A stretch of 64,000 nt of DNA. It comes from an uncultured Planctomycetales bacterium. Lineage in GTDB: Bacteria; Omnitrophota; Gorgyraeia; Aquiviventales; Aquiviventaceae. Under the pieces are notes generated by a model, which searched no databases, had not been told where the DNA came from, and worked only from the letters and a program-made list of their open reading frames with translations. Location of the stretch: assembly GCA_964373175.1 (NCBI GenBank), contig CAYJTP010000004.1, positions 6,651 to 70,650 of the forward strand, written 5' to 3'. The translations under genes and the position numbers were made by a program. Of this stretch, positions 11,047 to 42,189 are shown in pieces (within the stretch, counting starts at the first letter, position 1; every line of letters starts with the position of its first letter).

Positions 11047-11052
11047 GAGTGA

Positions 11053-12589: not shown

Positions 12590-12800
12590 CCTCGAATTGT
12601 GGATCGTCGATTGCGCCCGTCCCGGCTCTGAGACTCAACGGCGGGCCGGGGAATTGCGGATTGACCGACGAACCACTCCGCAATCCCTGCCCGCCATGAG
12701 AAGCGAGGGGCAGGCGGGGAAAATCCCTGCCCGCCACGCGGAACATGGGGCAGGCGGGCAAAATCCACAATCCCTGAGGTGTTGAAGCTAGCTCTAAGCA
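12590..12800. repeat. Array of GC-rich palindromic REP-like hairpin units (CCCTGCCCGCC-N10-GGGGCAGGCGGG family). A related unit lies at ~1080-1160.
   Basis: aatccctgcccgccatgagaagcgaggggcaggcggggaa / aatccctgcccgccacgcggaacatggggcaggcgggcaa plus a gaattgcgga…tccgcaatcc hairpin. The same cccgcctgcccc…gggcgggcaggg hairpin and the shared motif ccggctctgRgaYt..acggcgggccgggg occur at 1080-1160. Confidence 0.75.
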
Positions 12801-13334: not shown

Positions 13335-13461
13335 CCCCCCACCTATCTATCAAGGCGGCTATGAGGAGAGAGAAACCGCCGTGCGAAGCCGCCTTGATCA
13401 ACCTGTGTTGTTCCGTCGAACGAGTCCGCTGACAGCGGACTCGAGATAGATGGGGGGACCA

Positions 13462-14181
13462 TTACAGGGCGATCGCGGATTCCTCAGGCAAAGGGATGTA
13501 ATAGATCCCAACCTCTCGGTCGGGGGGAACGTGTTGGCGAATTGCCTGATACGCCTTCAAATGCGTGGTTCCGACCGCGACGACGCGATCATTCAGGACC
13601 GCCACGTACTTGCCCCCGTAGCGGGTGGTGAGTTCGTGGCTGTGGGCGAGGAAGTAGTGCCAGCTTGTCGACATCCACGGACCGATCTGGCTCCAGATCC
13701 GCTCGACGACTTCCTCAACCGTGGCGCGACTCGTGTCAAGCGTCAGGTCAGCCTTCGCATAGGCCGAGGCGCGCTGCGCCAATAATTGCTGAATCCGCTG
13801 AAGCGGGGAGGCGGCCTTCGCAAGTAATGGACGGCTCAAGAGGGTTGGACGCGCGCGCTGCACAATGACCCGCGGGCTTGCCGTCAGACAAATCACCGGC
13901 CCCACGGCCCGCAAGAGGCGTTGGTTCTCTGGATTGACAAACGCTCCCCCACCTGTCGCGATGACCTGTTGATGGCCCTTGGCGATCCGACGAATCGCCC
14001 GTTTCTCCAGCCGCCGAAAAACCGCCTCGCCGTGTTCGGCAAAAATCTTGGCGACGGACTCCTTGGCACTGGCGACAATCACGCTATCCACATCGACGAA
14101 CCGCCAGCCCAAGCGCTTCGCCAGCCGCTTGCCGACGGCGGTCTTCCCCGTGCCCATGAAGCCGGTCAGGGTAATGTTCAT
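13462..14181 (-). CDS. aroK: Shikimate kinase with an in-frame C-terminal ~70-aa DUF5678-like domain
   Basis: N-terminus MNITLTGFMGTGKTAVGKRLAKRLGWRFVDVD (P-loop) through …VEEVVERIWSQI is typical AroK (~170 aa). The frame then continues without a stop into MSTSWHYFLAHSHELTTRYGGKYVAVLNDRVVAVGTTHLKAYQAIRQ…IYYIPLPEE. That stretch resembles small standalone DUF5678-type proteins, assigned from memory. Confidence 0.8.
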   Translation of the reverse strand: MNITLTGFMGTGKTAVGKRLAKRLGWRFVDVDSVIVASAKESVAKIFAEHGEAVFRRLEKRAIRRIAKGHQQVIATGGGAFVNPENQRLLRAVGPVICLTASPRVIVQRARPTLLSRPLLAKAASPLQRIQQLLAQRASAYAKADLTLDTSRATVEEVVERIWSQIGPWMSTSWHYFLAHSHELTTRYGGKYVAVLNDRVVAVGTTHLKAYQAIRQHVPPDREVGIYYIPLPEESAIAL

Positions 14182-14184
14182 AGC

Positions 14185-14258
14185 TCAGAGGTCAGAAGAC
14201 AGAGGACAGAAGACAGAATACAGATGACAGGTCAGACCAGAGACAAGAGACATGAGAC
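14185..14258. repeat. Heptamer-repeat element, copy b
   Basis: gtcagaagacagaggacagaagacagaatacagatgacaggtcagaccagagacaagagacatgagaccagagat, between the aroK start and the upstream gene stop. Confidence 0.8.
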
Positions 14259-14264
14259 CAGAGA

Positions 14265-15542
14265 TTAAGGCGCATGTGTCGAGGTTGGTTGCTCCGGTGT
14301 CGCTGCCGCGAGGGCTTCCGGTGGTATGGTGATTTCGATTGGAAGGTTATGGTCGCTAAAGTCCACTGTGTTTTCGAATAAAAATTTCACGTTTTCATTT
14401 TTAGGAGGCGTACCAACTAGCTCCGCAAAGGGCCAACTCTGAATCGTTAGTCTCTTCAGAATTCCTTCTCCCTTTACATGGTCTCTCACAAGAAAATAGC
14501 TGTTTGAATCGATCCACTGCTCAGATATAAAATCAGTAACAACCAGGTTATCTTGGAATGTCGGTAGACTCTCTGGCGTATCGAGCAACCCTTGTAGTAT
14601 TTTCGCAACTCTTTGAAGACCACCGAATTTCTGCCTCACAAGGTAGCATTCCTTACCCTCCAATAAGACTTGTGCAATCTCCGCATTAGCAAATTCAGTT
14701 ATAGCGGTTTGTTTTCCCTCTGGCAACCTACCACTCGCCAAGGTTACCAAATCTTCTGGACGTTCACTAATGAATAGGTCAACTAAAGTGATCTTTCCTT
14801 CGCCCAACATATTCCAAAACTCTGCCACCCCTTTCGCGGTTTCCTCACCGGAAATTTTCTCCCAGCTTCCCAAAAAATTATGGAGCACAGCAGTCTCTGT
14901 GAAATAAATGTCTCTTTTCCTTCGCATCTCCTGTTCCACTACATTTATATCCAGTAATTGGAGGAGGTGTTGCTTTTGATCCGGCTTGAGGTTTAGGTTT
15001 TGTAGGACCTTTTGTCTCTCTTTTTGAAACAGCTCCTTAGCAAATTCACTCTCATGCCGAAGAACCTGATAGGATGCATGGTATCTCTTAGCATCAGCAC
15101 TACCAGCCCCTTCGCCTCTTGCTTCAAGATCAGTAAGGCCTTCGATTGATAAGGTGGTTTGGGCTACTGCCTTAATAGTCCGTATGGCTTTATTTACCCT
15201 CTCATATTTTGTGACGATCTCTTGAGGATCTGGAATCGGGCCGGGTTCTGAAACCTTGGTATCTTGCGTTGCCACAGGAGGCGTTTCAGATATCTTTGTC
15301 CCTGTCTCTGGAGGAGAGCTTGCCTCGATATGGGCGATGGATTCTTTCGCGTAAGGGATCGTTGTCCCACTGGAAACTTCAACTTCGACGGCGGAGTCCG
15401 TCATCTTCACAATTTTTCCCTCAATGACCTTGCCATCCTTGAAGTGGATTTTTTCAGCAAACGCCTCCTCTGACCAAAGAGCTGTGAGCATGACCACAAC
15501 CCACGCTCCCCACCATTTCCAGTCTCTTGTCTCTTGTCTCAT
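14265..15542 (-). CDS. Hypothetical secreted protein (N-terminal signal peptide). The gene has low GC (~45%) and is probably horizontally acquired.
   Basis: Signal-like MRQETRDWKWWGAWVVVMLTALWSEEAFA|EK, then a KIHFKDGKVIEGKIVKMTDSAVEVEV small beta-rich motif. No recognisable catalytic motif. Composition is markedly AT-richer than its neighbours (runs of aaa/gaa codons). Confidence 0.6.
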   Translation of the reverse strand: MRQETRDWKWWGAWVVVMLTALWSEEAFAEKIHFKDGKVIEGKIVKMTDSAVEVEVSSGTTIPYAKESIAHIEASSPPETGTKISETPPVATQDTKVSEPGPIPDPQEIVTKYERVNKAIRTIKAVAQTTLSIEGLTDLEARGEGAGSADAKRYHASYQVLRHESEFAKELFQKERQKVLQNLNLKPDQKQHLLQLLDINVVEQEMRRKRDIYFTETAVLHNFLGSWEKISGEETAKGVAEFWNMLGEGKITLVDLFISERPEDLVTLASGRLPEGKQTAITEFANAEIAQVLLEGKECYLVRQKFGGLQRVAKILQGLLDTPESLPTFQDNLVVTDFISEQWIDSNSYFLVRDHVKGEGILKRLTIQSWPFAELVGTPPKNENVKFLFENTVDFSDHNLPIEITIPPEALAAATPEQPTSTHAP

Positions 15543-20902: not shown

Positions 20903-20997
20903 GGAATGTCTCGACTAAATCAGGGGCGAGGGACGTGGGGCACGGGGCGTGGGCTCTCTGAGGCCGCCTTCGCCCCCTGTCTCCTGCCCCTTGCCCC

Positions 20998-21252: not shown

Positions 21253-22367
<1,115 letters not shown>

Positions 22368-23554: not shown

Positions 23555-25292
23555 GACTCAGCTTGGCCTCTTCATCGGGCTCTCGGTGACGGTACTGCGG
23601 GATTCCGCCTTCACCTTTCAAGGTCTCATACGTCCCGAGCATTTGATCATGCGCTTTCCCCGGGGCGATCATCGGCCAGCAGTCCTCGGATTCCTCGACC
23701 AGAAAATCGATCACCGTCGGGCGATCGCGCACCGCCATCGCCCGTTTAATCGCTGGACGCACGTCAGGTTTGCGCTCGACGCGGATCCCGACACAGCCAA
23801 ACGCCTCCGCGAGTTTCACAAAATCAATCGTGTTGAGTTTTGATTGCGCGTGGCGGCCTTGGTAGAACAGGTCCTGCCACTGGCGCACCATCCCGTGGTG
23901 CTGGTTGTTCATGATGGCGACCTTGATGGGCAGGTTGTGTTGCGCGGCGGTGGCCAGCTCCTGCGCCGTCATCTGAAAACTTCCGTCGCCATCGATGTCC
24001 CAGACCGTGGCCTCCGGACGCCCAAACTGGGCGCCGATGGCCGCCGGCAAGCCAAACCCCATGGTGCCCAAGCCGCCACTCGTGATGAGCGAGCGCGGCA
24101 GATTGAACTGGTAGAACTGGGCCGTCCACATCTGATGCTGGCCGACCCCGGTGGCGATGATGGCGCTACCCTTCGTCAATTCGGAAATCTGCTGGATGAC
24201 GAACTGCGGCAGCAGCTTCTTCTTTTCCCGGTACACCAACGGGTACTTCGCCCGCATCCCCTGAATCGTCTTCAGCCACGCGCGGGTGTCCCCGGGCTTG
24301 ACGATTCGATTGAGCTCTTGGAGCACTTGCTTCACATCGCCCACGATGGGGATATCGACCACGACGGTTTTATTGATCGACGAGGGATCGACGTCGATGT
24401 GGATTTTCTTGGCGCGTTTGGCAAACTCATCAGGCTTGCCGGTCACCCGGTCGTCAAACCGCGCCCCAATGCCAATGAGCAGATCACATTGGGCCACGGC
24501 GTAGTTCGTGTATTCAAAGCCGTGCATCCCCAACATCCCCAAACTCAACGGATCGGTCTCCGGAAATCCCCCAAGACCGAGCAGGCTCGTCGTCACGGGA
24601 ATGTGCGTCTTGCGGGCCAACTCCGCTAGCTCCTGCGCCGCTCCGGCATGGATGACCCCCGCCCCGGCATAAATAACGGGCTGGTTGCTGTTCGCAATGG
24701 CCTCAGCAGCGGCCTTGATGGCGCCGAGGTCTGGCTCCGGGAAGGCCTGGACGCGGTAGCCGCGGATGTTGATCTGCTCGGGGTAGAGAAACTCTGTCTC
24801 GGCGACGGTGGTATCGACCGGCAGGTCGATGAGCACTGGACCAGGTCGACCGGTGCGCGCAAGGTAAAAGGCTTCCTTCACCACCCGGGCCATGTCCCGA
24901 ACGTCTTTGACGAGATAGCTGTGTTTCGTGATGGGGCGGGTAATCCCCATCGTATCAGCTTCCTGGAAGGCGTCGTTGCCGATCACGGTCGTGCGAACCT
25001 GACCCGTCAGGGCGACGATCGGGATGGAATCCATGAAGGCCGTCGCAATGCCGGTAACGAGGTTGGTGGCGCCGGGTCCCGACGTCGCCAGGCACACCCC
25101 CACCTTGCCGGTCGCTCTGGCATAGCCATCTGCCATGTGCGCCGCGCCCTGCTCATGGACGGTCAGGATCACCTTGATGGACGACTGGTACAACGCATCA
25201 AAGGTCGGCAGGTTGGCCCCGCCAGGAATCCCGAACGCGATCTCCACATTTTCGCGTTTCAAGCACTCGATGAGAATTTGCGCTCCCTTCAT
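23547..25292 (-). CDS. ilvB: Acetolactate synthase large subunit
   Basis: ThDP-enzyme motifs (…GIPGGANLPTFDAL…, …GLGTMGFGLPAAIGAQFG…) over 581 aa. Confidence 0.95.
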   Translation of the reverse strand: MKGAQILIECLKRENVEIAFGIPGGANLPTFDALYQSSIKVILTVHEQGAAHMADGYARATGKVGVCLATSGPGATNLVTGIATAFMDSIPIVALTGQVRTTVIGNDAFQEADTMGITRPITKHSYLVKDVRDMARVVKEAFYLARTGRPGPVLIDLPVDTTVAETEFLYPEQINIRGYRVQAFPEPDLGAIKAAAEAIANSNQPVIYAGAGVIHAGAAQELAELARKTHIPVTTSLLGLGGFPETDPLSLGMLGMHGFEYTNYAVAQCDLLIGIGARFDDRVTGKPDEFAKRAKKIHIDVDPSSINKTVVVDIPIVGDVKQVLQELNRIVKPGDTRAWLKTIQGMRAKYPLVYREKKKLLPQFVIQQISELTKGSAIIATGVGQHQMWTAQFYQFNLPRSLITSGGLGTMGFGLPAAIGAQFGRPEATVWDIDGDGSFQMTAQELATAAQHNLPIKVAIMNNQHHGMVRQWQDLFYQGRHAQSKLNTIDFVKLAEAFGCVGIRVERKPDVRPAIKRAMAVRDRPTVIDFLVEESEDCWPMIAPGKAHDQMLGTYETLKGEGGIPQYRHREPDEEAKLSLG

Positions 25293-25304
25293 GCCTTGAG
25301 CCTC

Positions 25305-25395
25305 GTGATGATCCCTTCACGCTTGCCCGCCCCCCCGGCCCGCCGCGAGCGACAGCCGGGGCGGGCAGCGATAGCGAAAGGCGGGCCGGGGAGGC
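25305..25395. mobile_element. Partial, inverted copy of the TIR element core (the ccccccggcccgccg…gacagccggggcgggc… segment), immediately 5' of the ilvB start
   Basis: gcccgcccccccggcccgccgcgagcgacagccggggcgggcagcgatagcgaaaggcgggccgggg is approximately the reverse complement of the interior of the copies at 28479-28706 and 34447-34600. Confidence 0.5.
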
Positions 25396-25418
25396 ACTCA
25401 ACCAGGATGTGCGCGCCT

Positions 25419-25572
25419 TTCATCCCACCACCTGCGCCGCACGGCGGCGTTGTATCGTTGGTCCCACCATCGGCGCCGTGGCAAAGCCAAAACCCACAGC
25501 GTTGGGCAAATTAGAGGCCATTGGCTTCGTGGTCCGCCGTAGGCGGACCAGCGCAGGTGGTGGGATCATCTT
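25419..25572. mobile_element. MITE-like element with 16-bp terminal inverted repeats ATCCCACCACCTGCGC / GCGCAGGTGGTGGGAT (variant of the ATCCCCCCACCTG family)
   Basis: ttcatcccaccacctgcgcc … gcgcaggtggtgggatcatc. The TIRs are perfect and ~110 nt apart. It lies in the ilvB 5' region. Confidence 0.55.
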
Positions 25573-25735: not shown

Positions 25736-25930
25736 CGGAACGGCCCGTCAAGGAGCGCCGCGTCTTACGGGCTAGGGGCTTGAGGCAGCGGCCGGGGTCG
25801 TGCGGCGACCCCGCCATCGGGCCACGGCCTTCGGCCGTAGGCCCGCGCTGCTTCTTCAAACGCGGGGGCGGGATGTCGCCCCCCCGGCCCGACGCTGGCG
25901 CGAGCCGGGGCGGGCAGGTGGAGCGTGGTA

Positions 25931-26692
25931 TCAGGGTGCCACGCCCGCCTGCCCCCTGTTCCCCCTGGCGGGCAGGGGCTCTGCCCGTGGGGCTCCACTT
26001 GCGGTGTTCTTGGGCTGGATCGAGCAGGTGAGGGGATAGAGATAGAGCGGCACGAGATCGCGCGGATTGTCCGTATGTCCTTGGTGGAGCCGTTCAAGAC
26101 CCAGCCGCCCGAGCGTCGCGGCCCGAGGCATCCAGAGCTCCGGAGCCGCGAAGAGGGCTCGACTCCCGTAGCGTTGGGTCAGTGGCTCTCGATAGAGCGT
26201 CACGCCATCGCCGAGGAAGACGATGGAACCATCATATGTGATGAGGGTGGGCAATTCCTCGATCGTGACGAGGTGGTAGTCTGACTGCTTGCGCAACGTG
26301 CCGTCGATGACTCGGTAGCACGCCGTATAGACCTTGCGCTGCTTGGCATCCACGATGGGACAGATGGCATGGGGCACAAGCGGCAGGTGTGCAGCTAAGA
26401 CATCAAGCGAGGCAACACCCACCACCGGTGTGTGCGTGCGAAAAGCGAGGGCTTTCACAAATGCGACCCCGATCCGCAAGCCGGTGAAGGACCCTGGACC
26501 GATGTCCACGACGATAGCCTCCAGCTGCTCCAACGTCTGGTTGGCGGTCTGCAACACCCTAGTCACGGCTTGGGGAAGTTCAACGGCGTGTGGGCGCTCC
26601 GCGAAGATCTCATAGGAGGCCAGCACTCGGACTTCCTCCACCACGGCCACGCCAAGCTGGTCGGTCGCTGTGTCAATCGCGAGAACACTCAT
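25931..26692 (-). CDS. tsaB: tRNA threonylcarbamoyladenosine biosynthesis protein TsaB (YeaZ)
   Basis: MSVLAIDTATDQLGVAVV…IVVDIGPGSFTGLRIGVAFVKALA… The listed C-terminal ~30 aa run through REP-type repeats and may not be native. Confidence 0.85.
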   Translation of the reverse strand: MSVLAIDTATDQLGVAVVEEVRVLASYEIFAERPHAVELPQAVTRVLQTANQTLEQLEAIVVDIGPGSFTGLRIGVAFVKALAFRTHTPVVGVASLDVLAAHLPLVPHAICPIVDAKQRKVYTACYRVIDGTLRKQSDYHLVTIEELPTLITYDGSIVFLGDGVTLYREPLTQRYGSRALFAAPELWMPRAATLGRLGLERLHQGHTDNPRDLVPLYLYPLTCSIQPKNTASGAPRAEPLPARGNRGQAGVAP

Positions 26693-27120: not shown

Positions 27121-27613
27121 CGGCAAGTTTCTGGACCAGTTGGGATGAACGGGGCCCGTGGCTGATCGCCGCGATGGTCCGCTGGTTGGTCGTCCGATGG
27201 GTCAGGTAGATTTCGAGGTAGTCCTCTGGGAGACAGCCGCTGAATCGATCCGCCCACTCAATCACCGTCGCCTTCTTTGACGAGAACACCCATTCCAGGT
27301 CCAACCAGACGGCGGAGGCCGCGCCCTCCAACCGATACCCGTCGATATGGATCAGGGGGAGGCGTCCTTGATGCTCGCGTAAGAGGATAAAGGTCGGGCT
27401 TTTCACGCCTCCCGGATCGATGCCAAGCCCTTTCGCGATCCCTTGCACGAAGGTCGTCTTGCCACTGCCCAGTTCCCCCACCAGACCCACCACATCCCCC
27501 TGTGCCAGGAGCTCGCCGAGCCGCTCGCCGAGTTGGTGGGTCTCCTCCACCGAGCGGCTGATCAGTTCAAAAATGTTTGAAGCCTTTTGGGATGAGCGAG
27601 GTGATGCGGCCAT
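27104..27613 (-). CDS. tsaE: tRNA threonylcarbamoyladenosine biosynthesis ATPase TsaE (YjeE)
   Basis: Walker A VVGLVGELGSGKTTFVQGIAKGLG. ~160 aa. Confidence 0.85.
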   Translation of the reverse strand: MAASPRSSQKASNIFELISRSVEETHQLGERLGELLAQGDVVGLVGELGSGKTTFVQGIAKGLGIDPGGVKSPTFILLREHQGRLPLIHIDGYRLEGAASAVWLDLEWVFSSKKATVIEWADRFSGCLPEDYLEIYLTHRTTNQRTIAAISHGPRSSQLVQKLAVTRDQ

Positions 27614-28478
27614 CGGTTCGCACCAATTCTACACCAGCGCCGTGTGCGGTCACCACACCAATCTCCGTCAGGGGTAGGCGACCAATCGCCGCCGGCACGC
27701 GAGGGGCGATCCGCTGCGGGACCGTGAACAGCAATTCAAAATCTTCCCCGTCCATGAGCGCATGCCACGCCGTCTCGGCGGCTTGAGCCACGGGGATCGC
27801 GTCTTCGTGGATCTGGAACGTCACACGGCTAGCCCGCGCCAGCTGCCAGAGATCAGACGCCAGTCCATCCGAGAGATCAATCATGGCATGCACAGGAAGA
27901 TGCGCCACGAGCCACTGGGCCTCGCGCAGCCGTGGCGTGAAGGTCGCATGCCGGTGGTGCGCTAAGGCTCCGCCCAATCGCCCGGTCACGAACACCCGCT
28001 CACCGAGCTTGGCGCCACTGCGCAGGACAAGATGCTTCGGCCGGACGGTTCCGAGAATCGCGACGTCGATCACCACACACGGGGCGCGGACCGTATCGCC
28101 GCCGACGATCGCCACGCCAAATCGTCTGGCGCAGCGCACCAAGCCGTGGTAGAGCCGATCCACAAACGACACGGCAACCTGGCGCGGAAGTCCGAGAGAC
28201 ACAACCGCGTATTTCGGCACACCTCCCATCGCCGCGATGTCGCTGATATTGCATGCCAAGGCCTTCCATCCGATCCAGTGAGGGGCCAGATGTCCTCGCG
28301 TGAAGTGCACCCCCTCAATCAGCATGTCACTGGCAAAGAGCAGTGACTTGGTTCGCGTCGCGCGGAGAACCGCCGTGTCATCCCCGATTCCCACCAGCAC
28401 CGACGGGACAACGGGAATCCGTCGCCTGAGGCGGTCAATCAAGCCCACTTCCCCCAGCGTGGCAATCGTCCGCGTCAT
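27567..28478 (-). CDS. thiL: Thiamine-monophosphate kinase. The true start is ATG at 28476-28478, and the listed ORF extension runs into repeat DNA.
   Basis: MTRTIATLGEVGLIDRL…AIR-synthase-related fold motifs (…GDDTAVL…, …GGDTVRAP…). The upstream 61 codons of the listed ORF are encoded by the TIR element. Confidence 0.85.
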   Translation of the reverse strand: MTRTIATLGEVGLIDRLRRRIPVVPSVLVGIGDDTAVLRATRTKSLLFASDMLIEGVHFTRGHLAPHWIGWKALACNISDIAAMGGVPKYAVVSLGLPRQVAVSFVDRLYHGLVRCARRFGVAIVGGDTVRAPCVVIDVAILGTVRPKHLVLRSGAKLGERVFVTGRLGGALAHHRHATFTPRLREAQWLVAHLPVHAMIDLSDGLASDLWQLARASRVTFQIHEDAIPVAQAAETAWHALMDGEDFELLFTVPQRIAPRVPAAIGRLPLTEIGVVTAHGAGVELVRTDGRITSLIPKGFKHF

Positions 28479-28706
28479 CCCCCCACCTGTCTTCCCCGGC
28501 CCGCCGATAGCCCTCGCCGCCCGCCCCGGCTGTCGCCGGCGTCGGGCCGGGGGGGCGGGCGGCCCGGAGGGCCAACCGCGTTTGGGTTCATGGGTTGATT
28601 CACCTTCGGTGAACCCCCACACCACCCCGCCATCGGCGGGGTGGCGTCGGGGGAGCGCCATTCGGGGCTTCCTGGTGTGGGGGTGAATAGACAGGTGGGG
28701 GGATCA
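28479..28706. mobile_element. MITE-like element copy 1 (~228 bp). Terminal inverted repeats GTCATCCCCCCACCTG … CAGGTGGGGGGATCAT, with a nested CCCCCACACC…GGTGTGGGGG palindrome and a CCACCCCGCCA..GGCGGGGTGG REP.
   Basis: It is directly adjacent to the thiL ATG (…cgcgtcat|ccccccacctgtcttcc…gaatagacaggtggggggatcat). The interior shares ~70 bp with copy 2 at 34447-34600 (ccggcccgccgatagccctcgccgYccgccccggctgtcgccggcgtcgggccgggggggcgggc). Confidence 0.65.
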
Positions 28707-29735
28707 TCCCAACGCCTTGAACGTCAATCCCAGCCCCACCAACAAGGCGTTGTGAACCATGTGGACCGCAATGGGGCTGAATAACGACCCGGTCCGCTCA
28801 TAGAGATCGGCGAGCAAACAGCCCAGGATCACGATGGGGAGGAATCCGATGGGGTTGGTGTGGACCGCCGCGAACATCGAGCCGCTGATCAGCATGGCGA
28901 CAACGCGAGACATCCGGGTCCGCAGCGCGGGAAAGAGCACCCCTCGAAAAAAGATCTCCTCGACCACCGGCCCCACGAGGCACGCCAGCACGACGGTCAG
29001 CCCCACGATGATCCCCCGTTCCTCAAAGAGCAATTCCTGAATGGGCTCCAGGGGCGGCTGAATGCCGAACCGCTGGCACAGTTGGATCAGGATCCACAGG
29101 AGCCCGAAGATCCAGGGAAAGAGCGTCACATAACCCCGAAGCCCTTGCGTGATGGCCCCAGCCACCCTGCGTCGAGACAAACCCAAGGCCATCCGAACGG
29201 AGAGCGCTCTGGCGGACGCGAATCCGCACACGGTGAGCACGAGAAATCCGTGCACGATGAACATCGCAAGCACGCTCCACAGGTGCGGATCGGCCAGCTG
29301 CGATGGCCCCCACGCCATCAGGCTCAGGTGCACAAACGGGAGGAGGCTCGCGACCAACGCCAGCAACAGCACCATGCGGGCCAGTTCTTGGAGTGACCAA
29401 CTCCGGGGGAGTTTGGAGCGGTAGCGAAAGAGTCGGCGCAGGTTCCGTCGCCGGACGAGCTGGACCGTCAGCCCAACGCCACTCACGACCAGCCCAACCA
29501 ACAGCACGGCCCAGAATCCCAAGAGGAGCGCTACCCTGGGCTTCTGGGAAAAAAGCGACACCAGTTTTGTCGGGTCACGCTCAAGTCCCTGGAATTTCGT
29601 CGACGGGGCAGGGGTTTCGAATTCCGGCTCCAAGGCGCTGTGCAATCGAACCGGGGTACCGATGAACAACCGTGTGTACAGCACAAGGACGATGAGACCG
29701 AGCCCTGCATACAACCACCAGCCGCGATGAAGCAT
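28704..29735 (-). CDS. CPBP family intramembrane glutamic metalloprotease (CAAX protease-like)
   Basis: …VVEEIFFRGVLFPAL… (EExxxR), …FAAVH… and …HMVHNALL… motifs in a multi-TM protein. The probable start is the internal Met at ~29735 (MLHRGWWLYAG). It abuts the metG stop. Confidence 0.75.
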   Translation of the reverse strand: MLHRGWWLYAGLGLIVLVLYTRLFIGTPVRLHSALEPEFETPAPSTKFQGLERDPTKLVSLFSQKPRVALLLGFWAVLLVGLVVSGVGLTVQLVRRRNLRRLFRYRSKLPRSWSLQELARMVLLLALVASLLPFVHLSLMAWGPSQLADPHLWSVLAMFIVHGFLVLTVCGFASARALSVRMALGLSRRRVAGAITQGLRGYVTLFPWIFGLLWILIQLCQRFGIQPPLEPIQELLFEERGIIVGLTVVLACLVGPVVEEIFFRGVLFPALRTRMSRVVAMLISGSMFAAVHTNPIGFLPIVILGCLLADLYERTGSLFSPIAVHMVHNALLVGLGLTFKALG

Positions 29736-31326: not shown

Positions 31327-32391
31327 TCAGGGGCGTGGGGCGTGGGGCGTGGGGCGTGGGGCATCGCTCTGACCGTGCCCCTCGTCTCTCGCCCCCTGCC
31401 CCAACAAATCAAGCCATTCTTCGCGTAAGAGGGTCCCGACCAATCGGGGGCTCACCATCTGCTCAAGGGACCCCCATAACTCAATGAGCCGGAGGCCCGT
31501 CTCCACGCAGCGCTCGCTGTCCACCTGCTTCGCTTGCCGATGGATCGTCGTGGCGGCGTCCCGATGGCTCACCAGCGACTCATCCGCCACGGCCGCAACC
31601 GCAAGGTCACGAAGCCACGCAATCGACCCCATGAGCCAGGAAGCCACTTCCTGACGGTCCATCGGGACCGCCCATCCCAGCCACGGAGCTGGCGAGGCTG
31701 CACCAAACTGCGCGACCATTCCCTCCAGCGCCTTCCACTGCGTCATCACCTCAAGTGCCCGCGAGAGGCTCCCTTGGGCCAGACGGCTGATGGCCTGCGC
31801 AATCTGTGGAGGACAGGCGTGCCTGGTGACCAGCGAGTCTTCGATGAGGGAAGCGGACAGCCGAGCAAACCGAATGACCTGGCATCGCGAGACAATCGTC
31901 GCAAGGCAGCGGGCGGGCTGATCGGTCAGGAGAACAAACCGCGCGTGGGCGGGCGGTTCTTCGAGCGACTTCAGGAGGATGTTCCCCGCTTCCTCGGTCA
32001 ACCGATCCGCCCCATCCACGATCACCACCTGACACGTCCCCATGAAGGGACGCAGCGCAATCCGGCCTAACACGCCCCGAACCTCATCGATCCGAATCAG
32101 CTCTGAGGCGCCATGCGGGAAAAGCCCGTGCACATCAGGATGGACCTGGCGGTCGATCCGCTGACAGCTGTCGCAGCGATCACAGGAGTCGCTGTCGCCG
32201 TGTTCGCAGTTGAGGGCTTTAGCTAATGTTCTCGCCACGAGGCGCTTGCCGACCCCATCCGGTCCCACAAAGAGATACGCAAGCGCCAGACGCTGGCGGC
32301 TCGCGTGGGTCTGCAAGATCCGAAGGGCAAGGGCTTGTCCATGAATCTCCGTCCACGCCATCCGACCGAGTCCTATCCTGAAGGCCGCCAC
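31327..32391 (-). CDS. holB: DNA polymerase III delta-prime subunit
   Basis: AAA+ fold with AYLFVGPDGVGKRLVARTLAKALNCEH and the Zn module CDRCDSCQ. The C-terminal tail (…DAPRPTPHAPRP) is encoded by GGGGCGTGGGGCGTGGGG repeats. Confidence 0.85.
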   Translation of the reverse strand: MAAFRIGLGRMAWTEIHGQALALRILQTHASRQRLALAYLFVGPDGVGKRLVARTLAKALNCEHGDSDSCDRCDSCQRIDRQVHPDVHGLFPHGASELIRIDEVRGVLGRIALRPFMGTCQVVIVDGADRLTEEAGNILLKSLEEPPAHARFVLLTDQPARCLATIVSRCQVIRFARLSASLIEDSLVTRHACPPQIAQAISRLAQGSLSRALEVMTQWKALEGMVAQFGAASPAPWLGWAVPMDRQEVASWLMGSIAWLRDLAVAAVADESLVSHRDAATTIHRQAKQVDSERCVETGLRLIELWGSLEQMVSPRLVGTLLREEWLDLLGQGARDEGHGQSDAPRPTPHAPRP

Positions 32392-32413: not shown

Positions 32414-33058
32414 TCATCGCTGAGAATCGAGCCAGCTCAAAACCACACCGAGTACCCGGCGCGCAATCTCGGCTTGAGGCTGGGTGGCGTCAATGGCCAC
32501 AAAGCGCTGGGGCTCTCGCTGAGCGAGTTGACGGTACCCGGCTCGGACGCGCTCATGGAACGCGCGAGCTTTCTGTTCCATGCGATCCCGCGGCCTCCCC
32601 ACGCGTGCAAAACCTACCGCCGTTGGGACATCCAGGAGAATCGTCAGATCCGGGAGCCTCCCGTCAATCACCGCTCGGCCAAGCTGATCGAGCCAGTGGA
32701 CATCGACGCCTCCGCCGAACCCTTGATAGGCCACCGTCGAATCATGGAAGCGGTCGCACACCACGACGGCCCCTCGCTGCAATGCGGGACGGATCCGCGC
32801 CTGAATGAGCTGGAGCCGCCCCGCGAGAAAGAGCAGGGCCTCCGCTAGCGGGGAGAATCGATCCGACCCATCATGCAGCAACGTCTGCCGCAGACGACGA
32901 CCCAATGGCGTTGACCCGGGGTCGCAGACAAACACCACGGATTTCCTCCGAGTACGCAAGACCCGGACGAGACGTTTCGCCTGGCTCGACTTACCAGAGC
33001 CTTCTGGACCTTCGAAGGTGATGAAGAACCCAGGACGCGTCATGTCACGCGACGCCAC
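32414..33058 (-). CDS. tmk: Thymidylate kinase
   Basis: FITFEGPEGSGKSSQ P-loop, DRF-like motif (CDRFHDSTVAYQG). Confidence 0.9.
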   Translation of the reverse strand: MASRDMTRPGFFITFEGPEGSGKSSQAKRLVRVLRTRRKSVVFVCDPGSTPLGRRLRQTLLHDGSDRFSPLAEALLFLAGRLQLIQARIRPALQRGAVVVCDRFHDSTVAYQGFGGGVDVHWLDQLGRAVIDGRLPDLTILLDVPTAVGFARVGRPRDRMEQKARAFHERVRAGYRQLAQREPQRFVAIDATQPQAEIARRVLGVVLSWLDSQR

Positions 33059-34446
33059 AACGTCCCGCCGGCGGTATCCGTCAAGAGATATCCCTCCTGC
33101 TGGAGCTGCCGGCGGATTGCATCAGCCCGCTTGAAGTCCTTGGCCTTCCGAGCCCCGTCCCGTTCGGCAACCAGCGCTTGCAACCGTTGCTGGATGTCCG
33201 GACGCTCTTCTGACATGCCGTGGAGGAATAATCCAAGGGCCACCCCCCATTCCAGCAAGACATCATGGATCCCTCGTGCCATGAAGCGCTGTTTCGAGTC
33301 GCCAGACTCCAGGATCCGATGTCCCAGGTTCACCAGATCAAACAGCACGGACAAGGCCTCTGGCGTGTTGAGATCGTTAGCCATCGCTGTGTCGAATTGC
33401 GCTCGAGCCTTGAGGAGCTCTGGTGGAGCCGCTGCGCCACTCACAGCGTCGGGTTTGAGCTGGTCATCGTGTTGGAAAAACCGAGAAAATTCCTGCCAAT
33501 TGGTCTTGGCTTCAACCATGCGCTCCGATGAGTAGTCAATCGGCGACCGATAATGCGTTTTGAGGAAGAAGATTTTCAGGTAGTCGGGGTGAGGATAGTC
33601 CACCAGGACGTGGTCAACGGTCAGAAAGTTGCCCAACGACTTCGACATCTTTTCGCCGTTGACGGTCAGCAGCCCATGATGGACCCAATAACGGGCGAAG
33701 GGTTTGCCAGCCGCCTGGGCCTGGGCGAGTTCATTCTCATGATGCGGAAATACGAGATCGACTCCGCCGCCGTGGATGTCAAACGCATCGCCCAGATACT
33801 TCGTGCTCATCGCTGAACACTCGATATGCCAGCCAGGTCGTCCCCTCCCCCAGGGGCTGTTCCAAGACGGCTCGCCGGGTTTCGCAGCTTTCCACAGCGC
33901 GAAGTCTAACGGATCACGCTTGTGCTCACCCGGTTCCACGCGCGTCCCGGCTTGAAGCTCATCCAAGCTGCGGTTGGAGAGCTGGCCATAACGCGCAAAC
34001 TTCCGCACGGCAAAGTAGACATCGCCACCCGCTTCGTAGGCCGCGCCTTGCATGAGGAGCTTTGAGATCAGGTCGGTCATCTCTGGCACGACATGCTCCG
34101 TCGCGCGCGGCTCGTGCGTGGGAGGGTTGAGGCCAAGCCGATCCAACGTCTCATGATACCGTTTCAAATATCGTTCGGCGACGGCGGTCGGCGATTCACC
34201 GGTCTCCTGGGCTTTCTGGATGATTTTATCGTCGACGTCCGTCACGTTGCGGACACACTGCACCTGGAATCCTTTGTATTCGAGGTAGCGACGCAGGATC
34301 TCAAAGATGTAGGCACTCCGGACGTGGCCGATGTGCGGCTCATCGTACACCGTGGGGCCACAGACATACATCTTCACTGTAGGAGGATCGAGCGGCGTCA
34401 AGTCTTGGACGGTCCGAGTGAGCGTATTGTAAAGGCGCAGGGTCAT
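33040..34446 (-). CDS. cysS: Cysteinyl-tRNA synthetase. The true start is ATG at 34444-34446, and the upstream 112 codons of the listed ORF belong to the TIR element.
   Basis: [16 protein letters not shown]…[18 protein letters not shown] (HIGH) … KMSKSLGN. Confidence 0.9.
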
Positions 34447-34600
34447 CCCCCCACCTGCCTTCCCCCCCGGCCCGCCGATAGCCCTCGCCGTCCGCCCCGG
34501 CTGTCGCCGGCGTCGGGCCGGGGGGGCGGGCCGATCAAGCGTTGCGTCTCCTGTTGATTCACCTTCGGTGAATAGGCAGGTGGGGGGATCACGGGCTGTG
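34447..34600. mobile_element. MITE-like element copy 2 (~154 bp), same TIRs as copy 1, directly abutting the cysS ATG
   Basis: ggtcat|ccccccacctgccttcccccccggcccgccgatagccctcgcc…gattcaccttcggtgaataggcaggtggggggatcac. Confidence 0.65.
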
Positions 34601-35302
34601 GTGTGGTGACTGCGATTGCCGGAATTCTTTGAGGTGCCGCTCGATGAGATCAATTTCGTGCTGGAGTTTCTCCAAACGCTCCGTGAGCGGATCCGGGAGG
34701 TTGGTGTGATCGAGATTGATGCCGGGAAAATGGCGATCAGCGGTCCGGGCCACGCGGCCGGGGATCCCCACCACGGTAGCATTCGCCGGGACGTCTCGCA
34801 CCACCACCGCGTTGGCTCCGATCATCGCGTTATCGCCCACCGTGATATGCCCCAGGACTTTCGCCCCAGCGCCAATGACCACATTGTCTCCAATCGTTGG
34901 ATGGCGTTTGCCGCGTTGCTTGCCCGTCCCGCCGAGCGTCACCCCTTGAAACAGCGTCACGTTGTCCCCGATCACCGCCGTCTCCCCAATCACCACCCCC
35001 ATCCCATGGTCGATGAACAACCCCCGGCCAATCATCGCGGCGGGGTGGATCTCAATCCCGGTCGCCCACCGAACCAGCAACATGAGCAACCGCGGGATCA
35101 CGGGGATGTGCAGTCGGGACAACCCGTGGGCGACGCGATACCCAATGATCGCATGCAGTCCTGGATACGCCAGCAGCACCTCGAGCAGATTGCGGGCCGC
35201 AGGGTCTCGCTCAAAGCAGGCGCGGATCTCCTTGGCGAATGCGACTCGAATCATCAAAAGCAGCGTGACAATGAGGACGCTGCTGATAATCAGTGACGTC
35301 AT
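34589..35302 (-). CDS. cysE: Serine O-acetyltransferase
   Basis: N-terminal SAT helical domain plus left-handed beta-helix hexapeptide repeats (…[41 protein letters not shown]…). Confidence 0.9.
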
Positions 35303-35814: not shown

Positions 35815-35915
35815 TCAGAGGACAGAAGTCAGAAATCAGAAGACAGATCAACGCTAAACACACCGGAGGGTCTATTCTGATTTCTGTCCTCTGCCATCTG
35901 TCCTCTGGTACCTCC
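35815..35915. repeat. Heptamer-repeat element, copy e: inverted pair forming a long hairpin between ispD and ispF
   Basis: cagaggacagaagtcagaaatcagaagacaga…(loop)…tctgatttctgtcctctgccatctgtcctctg. Confidence 0.8.
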
Positions 35916-36669
35916 GCTTCAAGATCGCTTCTGCAAGTAGCAGATCTTCGCGGGTGGTGACCTTGATATTCAACGGATCCCCCGGCACCACATGAACCGG
36001 AAACCCGGCCCATTCCAGCAGGGCCGCGTCATCCCACCACCCGTCGCATCCGCCAAAGGCGGATCGATCGGCCCTTTGGGCCGAGCGACGAGTGGTGGGA
36101 TCATCCGGCATGGTCTCCAAGTGATGATCGACCCGCGCGAGTGTCTCTGCCAGCCAGTCTCGACGAAAAACCTGAGGCGTTTGCATGAACCAGAGGCTGT
36201 CTCGATCGAGGGTCAATCGAACCGTCGCGGCCTGATCGACGGCCTTCACGGTCACCGAGGCTGGCAAGCCGCACGCCACGGCTCCATAGCGCCGGGCCTG
36301 TGCAATCGTTGCCTGGATCAGACGTCGCGTGAGACACGGCCGAGCCCCGTCATGGACGAGAACCCATTGGGCCTTGGCAGGCAGTGCTGCCATCCCTCGG
36401 ATGACTGACTGGGCCCGCGTTGAGCCGCCGATGACAAGGGCCGTCACTTTCGTCAGCCGATGGCGTCGCACGAGACGCTGCATCGCGGCGCGATCCGCTC
36501 GGCGGACAGCCACCACAATCCACCGAATCGCCGGGGTCACCTCAAGCGCCTTGAGGGGGTGGAGGATGAGCGGCTGTCCCGCGAGCGTGATGAAGGCTTT
36601 CGAGGTCGGCCCTCCCAGGCGCATTCCTTGCCCCGCGGCAGGAATCACGGCTCCAACGTTCCGGACCAT
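35872..36669 (-). CDS. ispD: 2-C-methyl-D-erythritol 4-phosphate cytidylyltransferase carrying an in-frame ~26-aa insertion and a heptamer-encoded C-terminal tail
   Basis: MVRNVGAVIPAAGQGMRLG… conserved IspD blocks through …NIKVTTREDLLLAEAIL. Insertion PDDPTTRRSAQRADRSAFGGCDGWWD between …HLETM and DAALLEWAGF (E. coli has …TITDEASALEYCGF…). Confidence 0.85.
   Translation of the reverse strand: MVRNVGAVIPAAGQGMRLGGPTSKAFITLAGQPLILHPLKALEVTPAIRWIVVAVRRADRAAMQRLVRRHRLTKVTALVIGGSTRAQSVIRGMAALPAKAQWVLVHDGARPCLTRRLIQATIAQARRYGAVACGLPASVTVKAVDQAATVRLTLDRDSLWFMQTPQVFRRDWLAETLARVDHHLETMPDDPTTRRSAQRADRSAFGGCDGWWDDAALLEWAGFPVHVVPGDPLNIKVTTREDLLLAEAILKRRYQRTDGRGQKSE
36031..36101. mobile_element. Miniature TIR element (GTCATCCCACCAC … GTGGTGGGATCAT) with internal CCGCCAAAGGCGG and GGCCCTTTGGGCC hairpins, inserted in frame inside ispD
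   Basis: gtcatcccaccacccgtcgcatccgccaaaggcggatcgatcggccctttgggccgagcgacgagtggtgggatcatcc. It has the same terminal motif and the same GTCAT/ATGAT end asymmetry as the elements at 25419, 28479 and 34447. Confidence 0.7.
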
Positions 36670-37914: not shown

Positions 37915-39273
37915 TCAGGTGAGCGACGCCTGCACGGCCTCGCGAACGTTGCGCACCCCGACGACCTCAAGACCATCCGCCTGGATGGCGTGCTTCGAGG
38001 CCGCCACGAGGCACCGACGAAAACCCACCCGCTTCGCCTCGTGAAGCCGCTGGGCGAGATTGATGACAGGCCGAACTTCGCCGGTCAACCCCACCTCACC
38101 GATCGCGACATCCGTCCGGGCATTCGCCCGCTCCTTGAGGCTGGAGGCAATCGCCAGGGCCATCGCGAGATCGCAGGCAGGCTCCACCACCCGCACCCCA
38201 CCCAGCGATGAGACAAACACGTCCTGCTGGGCGAGCTGCGGCAGGCCGGCGCGCCGCTCGAGCACCGCCAACAACACGCTCACCCGATTAAAATCCACCC
38301 CGCTCGCTTTTCGACGGGGGAACCCCATGGTACACGGCGCCGTGAGGGCCTGAAGCTCGACCAGCAGCGGACGGCTCCCCTCGAGGCTCACCGTGACCAT
38401 GCAGCCGGGGGCTTGGTCGGTCCGATCACTCACGAAGAGCTCCGAGGGATTCGACACCTCGACCAGGCCCTCGCTCGTCATATGGAAGACGCCCAGCTCC
38501 GAGGTCTGGCCGAAGCGGTTCTTGGTGGTGCGCAACAAACGAAACCCGCTGGTGGGTTCCCCTTCGAAGTAGAGGACCGTGTCCACCAGATGCTCCAAGA
38601 CCTTTGGGCCGGCCAGGAATCCTTCTTTCGTGACATGACCAACCAAAATCATCGTGCAGATCTGATTCTTGGCGAGGCGAACCAGGCGATGGGCGCAAGC
38701 CCGGACTTGACTGATCGATCCCGGGCTTGAGGACAGCTCCCCGGATTCCACGACTTGAATCGAATCTACGATCACCACGTGCGCGGCGGTGTTGCGAATG
38801 GCTTCCTCAATGGCTTCGAGGTGTGTCTGTGAGACCAGCTGAATCGCGGACTCCCCCAGTCCCAGTCGCAGGGCCCGGAGTTTCGTCTGCCGGAGGCTCT
38901 CTTCCCCACTGGCATACAGGACCCGCAAGCCAGTGGCCCCTAAGCGGCCCGCCATGGAGAGTAGCAGCGTCGATTTGCCGATGCCCGGCTCCCCACCCAC
39001 GAGAATCACCGAACCCGGGACCAACCCCCCGCCTAAGACCCGATCAAGCTCTCCAATCCCGGTCTGGATGCGGATCGTGTCGTCAAGCGGGACCTCCGCC
39101 AGGAGGGTTGGGGTCACGGGTTCTGCGGTGACGGTGGACGTCCGAGGGGCTTCCTCAACCACTTCTTCCACCAAGGTGTTCCACTCCCCACACCCGGGGC
39201 AGCGGCCCGCCCACTTGATGGCCTGACACCCACACTGTTGGCAGATGAAGACGGCTTTGAGCTTACTGGCCAT
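37915..39273 (-). CDS. radA: DNA repair protein RadA (Sms)
   Basis: N-terminal Zn finger CQQCGCQAIKWAGRCPGCGEW, RecA-like ATPase (GGEPGIGKSTLLL), KNRFG motif and C-terminal Lon-like domain. Confidence 0.95.
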   Translation of the reverse strand: MASKLKAVFICQQCGCQAIKWAGRCPGCGEWNTLVEEVVEEAPRTSTVTAEPVTPTLLAEVPLDDTIRIQTGIGELDRVLGGGLVPGSVILVGGEPGIGKSTLLLSMAGRLGATGLRVLYASGEESLRQTKLRALRLGLGESAIQLVSQTHLEAIEEAIRNTAAHVVIVDSIQVVESGELSSSPGSISQVRACAHRLVRLAKNQICTMILVGHVTKEGFLAGPKVLEHLVDTVLYFEGEPTSGFRLLRTTKNRFGQTSELGVFHMTSEGLVEVSNPSELFVSDRTDQAPGCMVTVSLEGSRPLLVELQALTAPCTMGFPRRKASGVDFNRVSVLLAVLERRAGLPQLAQQDVFVSSLGGVRVVEPACDLAMALAIASSLKERANARTDVAIGEVGLTGEVRPVINLAQRLHEAKRVGFRRCLVAASKHAIQADGLEVVGVRNVREAVQASLT

Positions 39274-39274
39274 G

Positions 39275-39372
39275 ACTTCGCGATCAGAAGACAGAGGTCA
39301 GAAGTCAGAGGACAGGCGCGGCCGAGCTTATTGGGTACCTGTCTTCTGTCGTCTGTCTTCTGTCTTCTGTCC
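39275..39372. repeat. Heptamer-repeat element, copy f: inverted pair or hairpin between mlaD and radA
   Basis: gatcagaagacagaggtcagaagtcagaggacagg…ctgtcttctgtcgtctgtcttctgtcttctgtcc. Confidence 0.8.
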
Positions 39373-40101
39373 CTTCGGACGGATCAGGAGTTTCCAGGGG
39401 TGTTCTCGGAGATCATCGACAAACAGGACGATGCGCTGGTAGAGATCCTCGTCAAACAGGAGCTTCCCGAGATTGCCTTCACCGCCTTCCGCGTGGTACA
39501 TCGCCACGTTGAGCCGTTCGCCCAACAACCGCCACTGCCGTGTCGCATCCCGAGCCTCCTGCAAGGCCTCTTTGAGATAGATGCGCGCTTCGGGGTCCCC
39601 GACCAGCGCATTCAACCCTTCCAGGGCTCGCTTAAACTCGGTGAGGACTTCGTTGGACCGTTGGATGACTTGTTCGGTGGACACCGGGGGTCTGCCGATC
39701 AACAGATCCGTGGCTTTGACGAGCGCTCCGGTCCCAGCCCCGGGGATGATCTCGAGGTATTTCTCCCCTAACAACCCAAACGTGCTGATGGCGGCGATGT
39801 CGTCCGTCCGAATCTGCAGCCGGCGGGGCACGCGCGCGATCAATTCGACCTTGGGCCGCGAGGGATCCGATGGATAGATGATCCGCACATCCTCGACCTT
39901 GCCCACTTCGACCCCAGCGTACTGCACCGGAGAGCCCCGCGCGATCCCGTTGGCCGCGTCAAACACGACGTGCAACGTCAGCCCGGGCTGGAAGTAGGTC
40001 GCCAGGTCCCCGATGGCAAACAGAAACACCACCAGCATGACCATCCCCGAGATGATGAACGCCCCCACCTTCATCTCGAGTGACACGACCCGTTGCTGCA
40101 T
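39328..40101 (-). CDS. mlaD: MCE-family protein MlaD (outer-membrane lipid asymmetry maintenance) with a heptamer-encoded C-terminal tail
   Basis: TM helix plus MCE domain (…VVFDAANGIARGSPVQYAGVEVGKVEDVRI…). Ends …[21 protein letters not shown]. The preferred start is the Met at ~40101, adjacent to the mlaF stop. Confidence 0.8.
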   Translation of the reverse strand: MQQRVVSLEMKVGAFIISGMVMLVVFLFAIGDLATYFQPGLTLHVVFDAANGIARGSPVQYAGVEVGKVEDVRIIYPSDPSRPKVELIARVPRRLQIRTDDIAAISTFGLLGEKYLEIIPGAGTGALVKATDLLIGRPPVSTEQVIQRSNEVLTEFKRALEGLNALVGDPEARIYLKEALQEARDATRQWRLLGERLNVAMYHAEGGEGNLGKLLFDEDLYQRIVLFVDDLREHPWKLLIRPKGQKTEDRRQKTGTQ

Positions 40102-40919: not shown

Positions 40920-41007
40920 CCGCCTACCTAGGGGGCAAGGGACGAGAGACGTGGGGCGAGGAACTGGAAATCCCCACGCCCCTTGACCCCCGCCCCGCCC
41001 CCCGTCT

Positions 41008-42081: not shown

Positions 42082-42187
42082 GCCCCCACACCAATTTGCT
42101 GCATCGTGACGACGGGAAGGTGACGGACTATGTGCTTAATGAGACGGCCGCGTTGGCATTCGGACCGGACCGGCAAATTGGTGTGGG
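42082..42187. repeat. 17-bp perfect inverted repeat CCCCCACACCAATTTGC … GCAAATTGGTGTGGGGG enclosing ~70 nt, immediately 3' of clpC (CCCCACACC-TIR family)
   Basis: Read directly at 42082-42098 and 42171-42187. The spacer 41806-42080 also carries stacked GC palindromes (cccgggcaagcccggg, ccccggccaaggccgggg). Confidence 0.7.
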
Positions 42188-42189
42188 GG

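Follow-up and report, generated by a model that had tools for sequence, protein, structure and literature searches.

The window analyzed here, a 64,000-nucleotide stretch of contig CAYJTP010000004.1 (GenBank assembly GCA_964373175.1, from an uncultured Planctomycetales bacterium that GTDB places in the Omnitrophota), carries copies of a MITE (miniature inverted-repeat transposable element) that sit on the start codons of housekeeping genes. We found that these copies belong to a family of non-autonomous DNA transposons of Omnitrophota and allied metagenome-assembled genomes (MAGs), that the last base of the element helps to rebuild the start codon at which it has inserted, and that almost every copy can be read through from one end to the other. 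From its sequence, the element probably acts as a translationally coupled mini-cistron that passes ribosomes to the downstream gene. The repeats, the target duplication, the empty sites in relatives, the position on start codons, the length constraint, the openness of the reading frame, the orientation bias and the predicted fold were all established by computation. What is new is the start codon rebuilt by the element and a length rule quantified over about 100 copies; behaviour like that of MIRUs (interspersed repetitive units of mycobacteria) was already known. An earlier note on this DNA had described a MITE-like mobile repeat with a modular interior lying on initiation codons, and our analysis bears this description out, adding to it a copy at 13334-13458 and a through-reading mini-ORF (open reading frame) of constrained length.

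Copies in the window and the family to which they belong

The genes around most of the copies are all encoded on the minus strand, in the order ilvB, tsaB, tsaE, thiL, a CPBP-family protease gene, metG, cysS, cysE, ispF and ispD. Copy 1 (226 bp, 28478-28703, minus strand) lies between the stop codon of the CPBP-family protease gene and the start of thiL, and copy 2 (143 bp, 34446-34588, minus strand) lies between the cysE stop and the cysS start. Both end in the same perfect 12-bp inverted repeat (TCCCCCCACCTG/CAGGTGGGGGGA) and both are flanked by TCA duplications, at 28475-28477 and 28704-28706 for copy 1 and at 34443-34445 and 34589-34591 for copy 2, such that each reads on the gene strand as the upstream stop TGA, TCCCCCCACCTG…CAGGTGGGGGGA and a second TGA. 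The repeats and the common interior reported in the earlier note are real, the two copies having 82 nt in common at 90% identity, but the boundaries given there (28479-28706 and 34447-34600) needed correction. The elements also do not begin after the ATG, as had been thought. Their terminal base is itself the A of the ATG (at thiL, this A pairs with plus-strand base 28478), and it is the target duplication that supplies the TG. The long N-terminal extensions that an ORF caller gives to both genes, which had been noticed before, are artefacts: the ORF 27567..28661 encodes 364 residues compared with 303 for ThiL, and 33040..34782 encodes 580 compared with 468 for CysS.

Copy 3 (143 bp, 25423-25565, minus strand) occupies the ilvB leader, with the repeat TCCCACCACCTG/CAGGTGGTGGGA and TCA at 25420-25422 and 25566-25568. 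A repeat variant had been noticed here before and is confirmed along with its TCA flanks, but it abuts a relic start at 25421 and not the true ilvB start at 25292. In addition to these three intact copies (at thiL, at cysS and upstream of ilvB), the window holds two variants. The first, of 69 bp (36032-36100, minus strand), is located inside ispD between TCA triplets at 36029-36031 and 36101-36103. With its 3-bp duplication it amounts to the 72 nt that had been recognized as an in-frame member of the family, and adds 24 amino acids to the protein; its TGA is out of frame as a stop. The second, copy 5 (125 bp, 13334-13458, minus strand), has imperfect repeats and a CCA/TGG duplication at 13331-13333 and 13459-13461. 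It lies at a TAATGG junction between a shikimate-kinase-like gene and a 149-residue ORF, and its last A rebuilds the ATG of that ORF. When we searched the window with a 13-mer of the repeat, allowing up to two mismatches, we obtained 11 matches compared with 2.6 ± 1.7 in shuffled sequence, where none of 100 shuffles reached 11.

The comparison of orthologous 5' regions that the earlier note had proposed revealed empty sites. Three syntenic loci from relatives (L113, L114 and L115) keep the order ispD-ispF-cysE-cysS-tmk-holB-metG-CPBP-thiL-tsaE-tsaB-ilvB, but lack all four of the copies that the window has in its ispD–ilvB gene cluster. The cysE/cysS junction of L113 and L114 consists of a stop, 5-7 nt and an ATG, and the CPBP/thiL junction of L115 of TGA, 7 nt and ATG, with no element in either. 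The tsaB/ilvB gap of L115 measures only 48 nt and includes a promoter-like TGATATAAT. In a BLASTP alignment with the IspD of L114, there is a 24-residue gap exactly at P|DD, matching the insert in the window. Excising the element together with one copy of the duplication restores an ATGA or GTGA overlap, GGGATGACG at CPBP/thiL and CCCGTGACC at cysE/cysS. Short-read contigs from the lineage of the window (L109-L112) break inside copy 2. After the identical protein P0001, the nearest relatives of the window CysS are annotated Omnitrophica.

The family extends well beyond these genes. By scanning one genome per species, we found both repeat arms at 108 or more further loci in many MAGs, nearly all of which are labelled Omnitrophota or "Planctomycetales". 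The terminal inverted repeat of the family is 12 bp long, TCCC(C/A)CCACCTG…CAGGTGG(G/T)GGGA, and its commonest end is GGTGGTGGGA. Within it, the conserved Shine-Dalgarno-like part is AGGTGG; a GGGGGG run to which attention had been drawn in the window is not conserved. Most elements are about 128-158 bp long, with extremes of 29 and 280 bp. For the statistics given here, we used copies with two perfect 12-bp repeats spaced 104-134 nt apart and oriented so that the duplication reads TGA, which yielded 117 repeat pairs and 102 non-redundant copies, all among the matches listed. The flanking triplets were identical in 107 of these 117 pairs (TCA 55, TGA 44, TTA 4, CGA 2, TAG 1 and TGG 1), with TGA and TCA together making up 99, so that the duplication is TGA on the gene strand in nearly all cases. 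Because the non-stop triplets TGG, CGA, ACA and CCA flank copies as well, we take the flanking triplets to be a genuine target-site duplication.

A BLASTN comparison of the window with these 108 loci, among which its own genome does not figure, gave two short matches only; diverged genomes have the family in common. Interiors vary from copy to copy, by 13-27% even within a genome, and the downstream genes are unrelated. A single-linkage clustering of the interiors at 62% identity was discarded, as random GC-rich pairs align at about 58%, and top pairs were used instead. A metagenome scan with a subfamily-specific 22-mer gave one extra copy only; the subfamily of copy 2 is found on a metagenome contig (L116) at an unrelated site, after rplL. 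A scan of viral contigs gave a single match without a duplication, which we judged irrelevant. There is no transposase gene inside the elements, which hold only low-complexity ORFs of 10 to 54 codons, and the long repeat pairs with matching duplications that came up in our search for an autonomous insertion sequence (IS) each turned out to be two separate MITEs. Altogether, the inverted repeats, target duplication, small size, dispersed copies and empty orthologous sites identify the family as a MITE, presumably mobilized by a DDE-type transposase. The 3-bp T-N-A duplication, to which CGA and TGG are the exceptions, is reminiscent of the IS5 family (IS1031/ISL2 groups) and of PIF/Harbinger-Tourist elements, which make 3-bp TNA duplications, and such an enzyme is a tentative candidate only. 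The start of the repeat, TCCC…, is unlike IS5-type ends.

Start codons, mini-ORFs and the predicted fold

At the left end of the element the native (A/G)TGA is kept, and at the right end the element's last A and the duplicated TG form a rebuilt start codon. In 84 of the 102 copies, the rebuilt ATG begins an ORF that is 80 codons or longer and rich in third-position GC (control frames, 0 and 32), and in 70 such an ORF ends at the left TGA (control frames, 25 and 4). Both ORFs are present at 60 copies (59%), compared with 4.5% of 5,193 other ATGA sites in the same loci, while four copies lie at a stop without a start and seven at neither. Directly before the TGA stands an A in 81% of copies and a G in 10%, with T (3%) and C (6%) making up the rest. 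The proportions of A and G resemble typical start-codon usage, and the three C cases that we inspected, of six, are TGATG junctions. The base after the TGA is A in 27%, C in 14%, G in 35% and T in 24%. C is not preferred, and the ATGAC target preference suggested earlier reduces to ATGA, beyond which, or beyond (A)TGA, the target consensus is weak. Each of the four TTA (TAA) duplications falls at a TAATG overlap; the single TAG duplication falls at TAGATG, and those of TGG at ATGG. In surviving copies, the TGA belongs either to a start and a stop that overlap as (A/G)TGA or to a start codon with an A after it. In every copy, AGGTG(G), which is complementary to the CACCU of the 16S rRNA 3' tail, stands 5 nt upstream of the rebuilt ATG.

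Element lengths advance as 128, 131, 134 … 158, and are 2 mod 3 in 81 of the 102 copies. The native ATG opens a mini-ORF that reads ATG ATC CCA CCA CCT… and ends …CAG GTG GTG GGA TGA at the right duplication. The mini-ORF shares bases with its neighbours at both ends, its start with the upstream stop and its TGA with the rebuilt ATG. A length of 2 mod 3 is what brings the frame of the native ATG to this right TGA. We found that the mini-ORF frame is free of stops in all 81 of the 2-mod-3 copies; by comparison, 36 of the 81 are open in the other sense frame and about 45% in antisense frames. Of the 21 off-length copies, most either have an internal NTGA relay, where a first mini-ORF terminates on the start codon of a second and the second continues to the right TGA, or have their left ATG fused in frame to the downstream ATG. 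Taking these routes together, an unbroken translation path is present in 97 of the 102 copies, compared with 47.8 ± 4.7 when the interiors are shuffled (maximum 63 in 500 shuffles); with the element flipped, the path is unbroken in 61. Related copies have the same orientation relative to the gene in 44 of the 45 top pairs. The encoded peptides have only M-I-P-P-P and Q-V-(V/G)-G in common, both of which are encoded by the inverted repeats, and selection seems to act on the openness of the frame and not on a protein.

The window copies illustrate both arrangements. The mini-ORF of copy 2 (34443-34592, minus strand) runs from a GTG that overlaps the cysE TGA (GTGA) to a TGA that overlaps the cysS ATG, and that of copy 3 (25569→25420, minus strand) encodes MIPPPALVRL…AAQVVG before its stop. 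Copy 1 is a relay, scored "coupled, 1 hop" in our path test. Its mini-ORF a (28600-28707, minus strand) begins with the native ATG at 28707-28705, which forms an ATGA with the CPBP stop, and ends with the TGA at 28602-28600; it encodes MIPPPVYSPPHQEAPNGAPPTPPRRWRGGVGVHRR by three-frame translation. The stop of mini-ORF a overlaps the GTG of mini-ORF b as GTGA (junction AGG TGA / GTG). Mini-ORF b (28475-28603, minus strand) then extends from this GTG at 28603-28601 to a TGA at 28477-28475, encoding VNQPMNPNAVGPP…GRQVGG, and its TGA overlaps the thiL ATG.

The two ends of the element are complementary over exactly 16 positions. Positions 13-16, just inside the 12-bp repeat, show 37 different 4-mers and yet are paired in 80-94% of cases, whereas position 17 is paired in 3%. 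In 93 of 100 predicted element folds, this complementarity forms a 16-bp closing stem. The stem encloses a multibranch loop, and REP-like (repetitive extragenic palindrome-like) hairpins with the pattern xxxxGCC-N3-4-GGCxxxx, for which 19 nt is the commonest length, adjoin each arm. Copy 2 has a predicted folding energy of -104 kcal/mol (z = -3.6), with the closing stem formed by its inverted repeats, and copy 3 one of -92.9 kcal/mol (z = -4.3). In these modelled structures, the left arm mimics an anti-Shine-Dalgarno sequence and the ribosome-binding site is buried in the stem.

Probable translational coupling, its alternatives and known systems

If the element is a coupled mini-cistron, it could work as follows. 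Insertion would leave the native Shine-Dalgarno sequence and start codon at the left end, opening the mini-ORF, and the element would be co-transcribed with its operon. In the transcript, the two repeats and the four variable complementary bases would close the 16-bp stem over the Shine-Dalgarno/AUG. Ribosomes from the upstream gene or from the native start would open the stem as they translated the mini-ORF; on reaching the rebuilt AUG they would terminate and then reinitiate, aided by the Shine-Dalgarno-like motif of the repeat. Coupling and protection from polarity could thereby survive a 130-nt insertion, with no stretch left untranslated, and the result would be essential operons that are split by the element without being silenced. 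The overlap of the mini-ORF start with the upstream stop, together with that of its stop with the rebuilt start, argues for translational coupling rather than simple donation of a ribosome-binding site.

Several points weigh against this reading. Translation of the mini-ORF and reinitiation are what we infer, the translation path is broken in five copies, and about 19 of the 102 copies have no gene upstream from which ribosomes could arrive. Initiation might also be hindered by a stem of -75 to -115 kcal/mol right after the native AUG. An autonomous IS with the same repeats was not found in about 0.8 Mb of loci, MAGs being assemblies in which IS copies are rarely recovered. Sampling by perfect repeats could enrich copies kept by selection and hide decayed copies elsewhere; the imperfect copies found later are likewise at ATGA/ATGG sites. 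MAG assemblies also break at near-identical repeats, which leaves young copies under-sampled.

A stronger version of the coupling idea would hold that the family is more than tolerated, and either homes to initiation sites by some targeting or has been co-opted as a mobile gate for translational coupling. We regard this as possible but doubtful. With such co-option, the 16-bp stem would make the downstream gene depend strictly on the upstream cistron being translated, and in many places throughout a phylum of uncultured bacteria the stoichiometry of operons would have been rewired by a selfish element.

A rival explanation would be passive tolerance: the transposase prefers TGA, insertions that break genes are lost, and a few founders have handed down the open frame and the length bias, which play no role in expression of the downstream gene. 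The weak target consensus beyond (A)TGA agrees with this, subfamilies do exist and would pass on some of their length and frame properties, and our sampling favoured intact copies. However, many copies would then be expected at neutral TGAs, intergenic or at 3' ends, and the 11 copies at a stop without a start or at neither are all that we see. Open frames in 81 of 81 copies, and relays precisely in the off-length ones, are hard to obtain from founders, whose inheritance is made improbable by the divergence of 13-27% between copies of one genome. The orientation of the element is, moreover, fixed relative to the gene. We therefore consider passive tolerance unlikely.

We are slightly more sceptical of the idea that the element merely donates a ribosome-binding site or promoter, with the downstream gene initiated independently and the mini-ORF irrelevant. 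The presence of AGGTG(G) at the same distance from every rebuilt ATG is in its favour, but the Shine-Dalgarno/AUG is buried in a predicted GC-rich stem, and the 2-mod-3 lengths, open frames and relays are left unexplained. Promoter donation in particular was rejected, as a promoter scan found no sigma-70-like site inside any window copy. The earlier note had offered a promoter or a translation-initiation function, and it is the second of these that the sequence supports as a probable role.

Least probable is a REP/REPIN-like or other hairpin element spread by an HUH enzyme (RAYT or IS200/IS605-type), or a vertically inherited, structured intercistronic RNA, with the TGAs as functional stops: the interior is built of REP-like hairpins, the stem extension covaries and both TGAs act as stop codons in most copies, but non-stop triplets (TGG, CGA, ACA, CCA) are duplicated too, the ispD TGA is not in frame as a stop, presence and absence vary among syntenic relatives, the same subfamily occurs beside unrelated genes, and an Rfam scan of the whole window gave no family at gathering score. 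REP/REPIN membership, judged with no search for a RAYT gene, is also at odds with the 3-bp target duplication. A riboswitch or other leader RNA, which the earlier note had named as the main alternative to a mobile repeat, was rejected given the Rfam result, the diverse interiors and the unrelated downstream genes. Integron attC sites were rejected by argument, as the genes are housekeeping genes whose order is syntenic with relatives and the target is duplicated.

Translational coupling through an inserted repeat has its closest precedent in the MIRUs, for which insertion at start codons and an ORF with coupling at -4 nt have been described (PMC12548453; PMC3184786), an account that goes back to Supply et al. 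1997 as summarized in these two papers. MIRUs and the family described here are both GC-rich intercistronic repeats of operons, 40-100+ bp in size, with empty and filled sites, short flanking direct repeats and a small ORF that overlaps the flanking stop and start (at -4 nt in MIRUs). MIRUs are transcribed within the polycistron, as our elements presumably are, and their insertion at start codons has been interpreted as having little effect on expression. They differ in having imperfect inverted repeats and tetranucleotide direct repeats, and in often forming tandem arrays (variable-number tandem repeats, VNTRs), whereas the present family has perfect 12-bp repeats (16 bp paired), a 3-bp duplication and a last base that rebuilds the start codon. 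It is also a different sequence family in a different phylum, a distinction that we draw from the MIRU descriptions and not from a sequence alignment.

Correia/NEMIS, ERIC, RUP, Nezha, Chunjie and Rickettsia palindromic elements (RPE) likewise have repeats and duplications, are small and transposase-free, form RNA hairpins and are co-transcribed, and the in-frame coding insertion in ispD resembles an RPE. Other bacterial MITEs are mostly intergenic, in 3' untranslated regions (UTRs) or in-frame protein inserts. Neisseria REP2 and the Borrelia inverted-repeat units also served as comparison systems (PMC3184786); REP2 lacks terminal inverted repeats and a target duplication, carries a promoter, replaces the 5' UTR and bridges no cistrons (PMC3184786). 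In the literature that we searched, no other MITE family is described as lying systematically on start codons with a through-reading coupled ORF, and we found no paper on this family. In synthetic bicistronic designs, a translated leader ORF ends on the target AUG and has the Shine-Dalgarno sequence inside its coding sequence, which removes the effect of local structure (cited in PMC12548453). Such designs are engineered and not mobile, whereas the element would be their natural and transposable counterpart.

If coupling does occur, the family would show how a transposon can live inside essential operons, by means of a rebuilt start codon, a Shine-Dalgarno sequence in its repeat and a translatable interior. 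It would also be a better-defined example of the MIRU idea, with clear repeats, a clear duplication and about 100 copies for statistics. For annotation, such elements mean false N-terminal extensions (61 residues on ThiL and 112 on CysS), spurious small proteins and contig breaks in Omnitrophota MAGs.

Variant copies, nested modules and other repeats

Some family members depart from the common form. A minimal element of 29 bp (L041 4141-4169) consists of the two arms and a 5-nt loop, and its mini-ORF is still open (MIPPPVLQVVG, then a stop). Occasional tandem pairs have one TCA in common to both elements (L018 63-342 and L025 3136-3436). A repeat variant with a terminal G, CCCCACCACCTG…CAGGTGGTGGGG, occurs at L012 1531-1684, L043 191-271, L054 6486-6634 and L089 2706-2873. 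With the duplicated TG, the copy in L054 would rebuild a GTG start and not an ATG; the other three have different flanking triplets. Identical repeats around AT-rich interiors are found in low-GC genomes, at L040 3915-4071 in an unclassified MAG and at L074 1402-1553 in an Auribacterota MAG, which indicates that the family reaches beyond GC-rich Omnitrophota. The mini-ORF of the L074 copy is open over 52 codons.

Copy 1 of the window contains a nested 70-bp element (28614-28683) of a second inverted-repeat family, CCCCCACACCA…TGGTGTGGGGG, with TGAA on both sides. It includes a REP-like hairpin, CACCCCGCCATCGGCGGGGTG, and is absent from copy 2 in an alignment of the two, which confirms an earlier report of a nested palindrome and REP in copy 1. 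Other members of this second family (CCCCCACACCAA…TTGGTGTGGGGG, 47-107 bp) lie at 42083-42189 in the window and at L004 5248-5294, L030 1917-1975 and L100 7336-7394; the family occurs in other Omnitrophota MAGs, and its flanking repeats are inconsistent (TGAA, CAAG or none). A 68-nt GC-rich palindromic module is present at 28493-28560 in copy 1 and at 34462-34531 in copy 2, and stands alone and inverted at 25325-25392, where it is 84-87% complementary to the interiors of both. The sequence previously read as a partial core of the element near ilvB is indeed related, and is this solitary module. Because the module is missing from the copy of the same subfamily in L116, it is probably a separate insertion. 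Its sequence, CGCCCCCCCGGCCCG…CGGGCCGGGGGGGCG, is also found at 25877-25917, 1076-1125 and 12609-12658.

The relic start that copy 3 abuts belongs to a second ilvB-like 5' end, a relay ORF (25289-25421, minus strand) that encodes MKGAHILVECL, a 66-nt module in frame, and KREGIITRLKA before its stop. Copy 3 rebuilds the ATG of this relay ORF, which closes with a TGA that overlaps the ATG of ilvB proper (25292), from which the IlvB protein aligns with position 1 of the model TIGR00118. Between the relic (MKGAHILVECL…KREG) and the true MKGAQILIECLKREN, the differences are mostly synonymous, and the GC-rich module interrupts the relic in frame. This second end may be a leftover of gene replacement or recombination that is now one more relay ORF. 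A solo degenerate repeat end, CAGGTGAGGGGA, is located within the 3' end of tsaB (26026-26037). The last 35 or so residues of TsaB extend beyond the family model, which ends its match at residue 218 of 253, and this C-terminal extra (25931-26040) is encoded by the solo repeat end and REP-like sequence.

Between ispD and ispF, the window has an inverted pair of 7-nt tandem arrays at 35815-35921, (CAGAGGA/CAGAAGA)n … (TCTTCTG/TCCTCTG)n, at a junction where the two genes of L115 overlap as ATGA. The C-terminus of IspD, …YQRTDGRGQKSE, is encoded by these heptamers. Similar arrays are found near 11045-11135, 14172-14265, 21316-21389, 39264-39390, 49577-49632, 54117-54179 and 57343-57408. A second heptamer family, with GGGGCGT/GGGGCGA units, occurs at 20923-20952, 31330-31359, 40932-40961, 50229-50258 and 52238-52267, often paired with C-rich counterparts such as those at 31370-31412 and 52279-52321. 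REP-like double hairpins, TCCGCCNNNGGCGGATCCGCCNNNGGCGGA, also stand alone in the window, at 8886-8920, 44706-44740 and 60800-60834; they are of the type that the MITEs contain.

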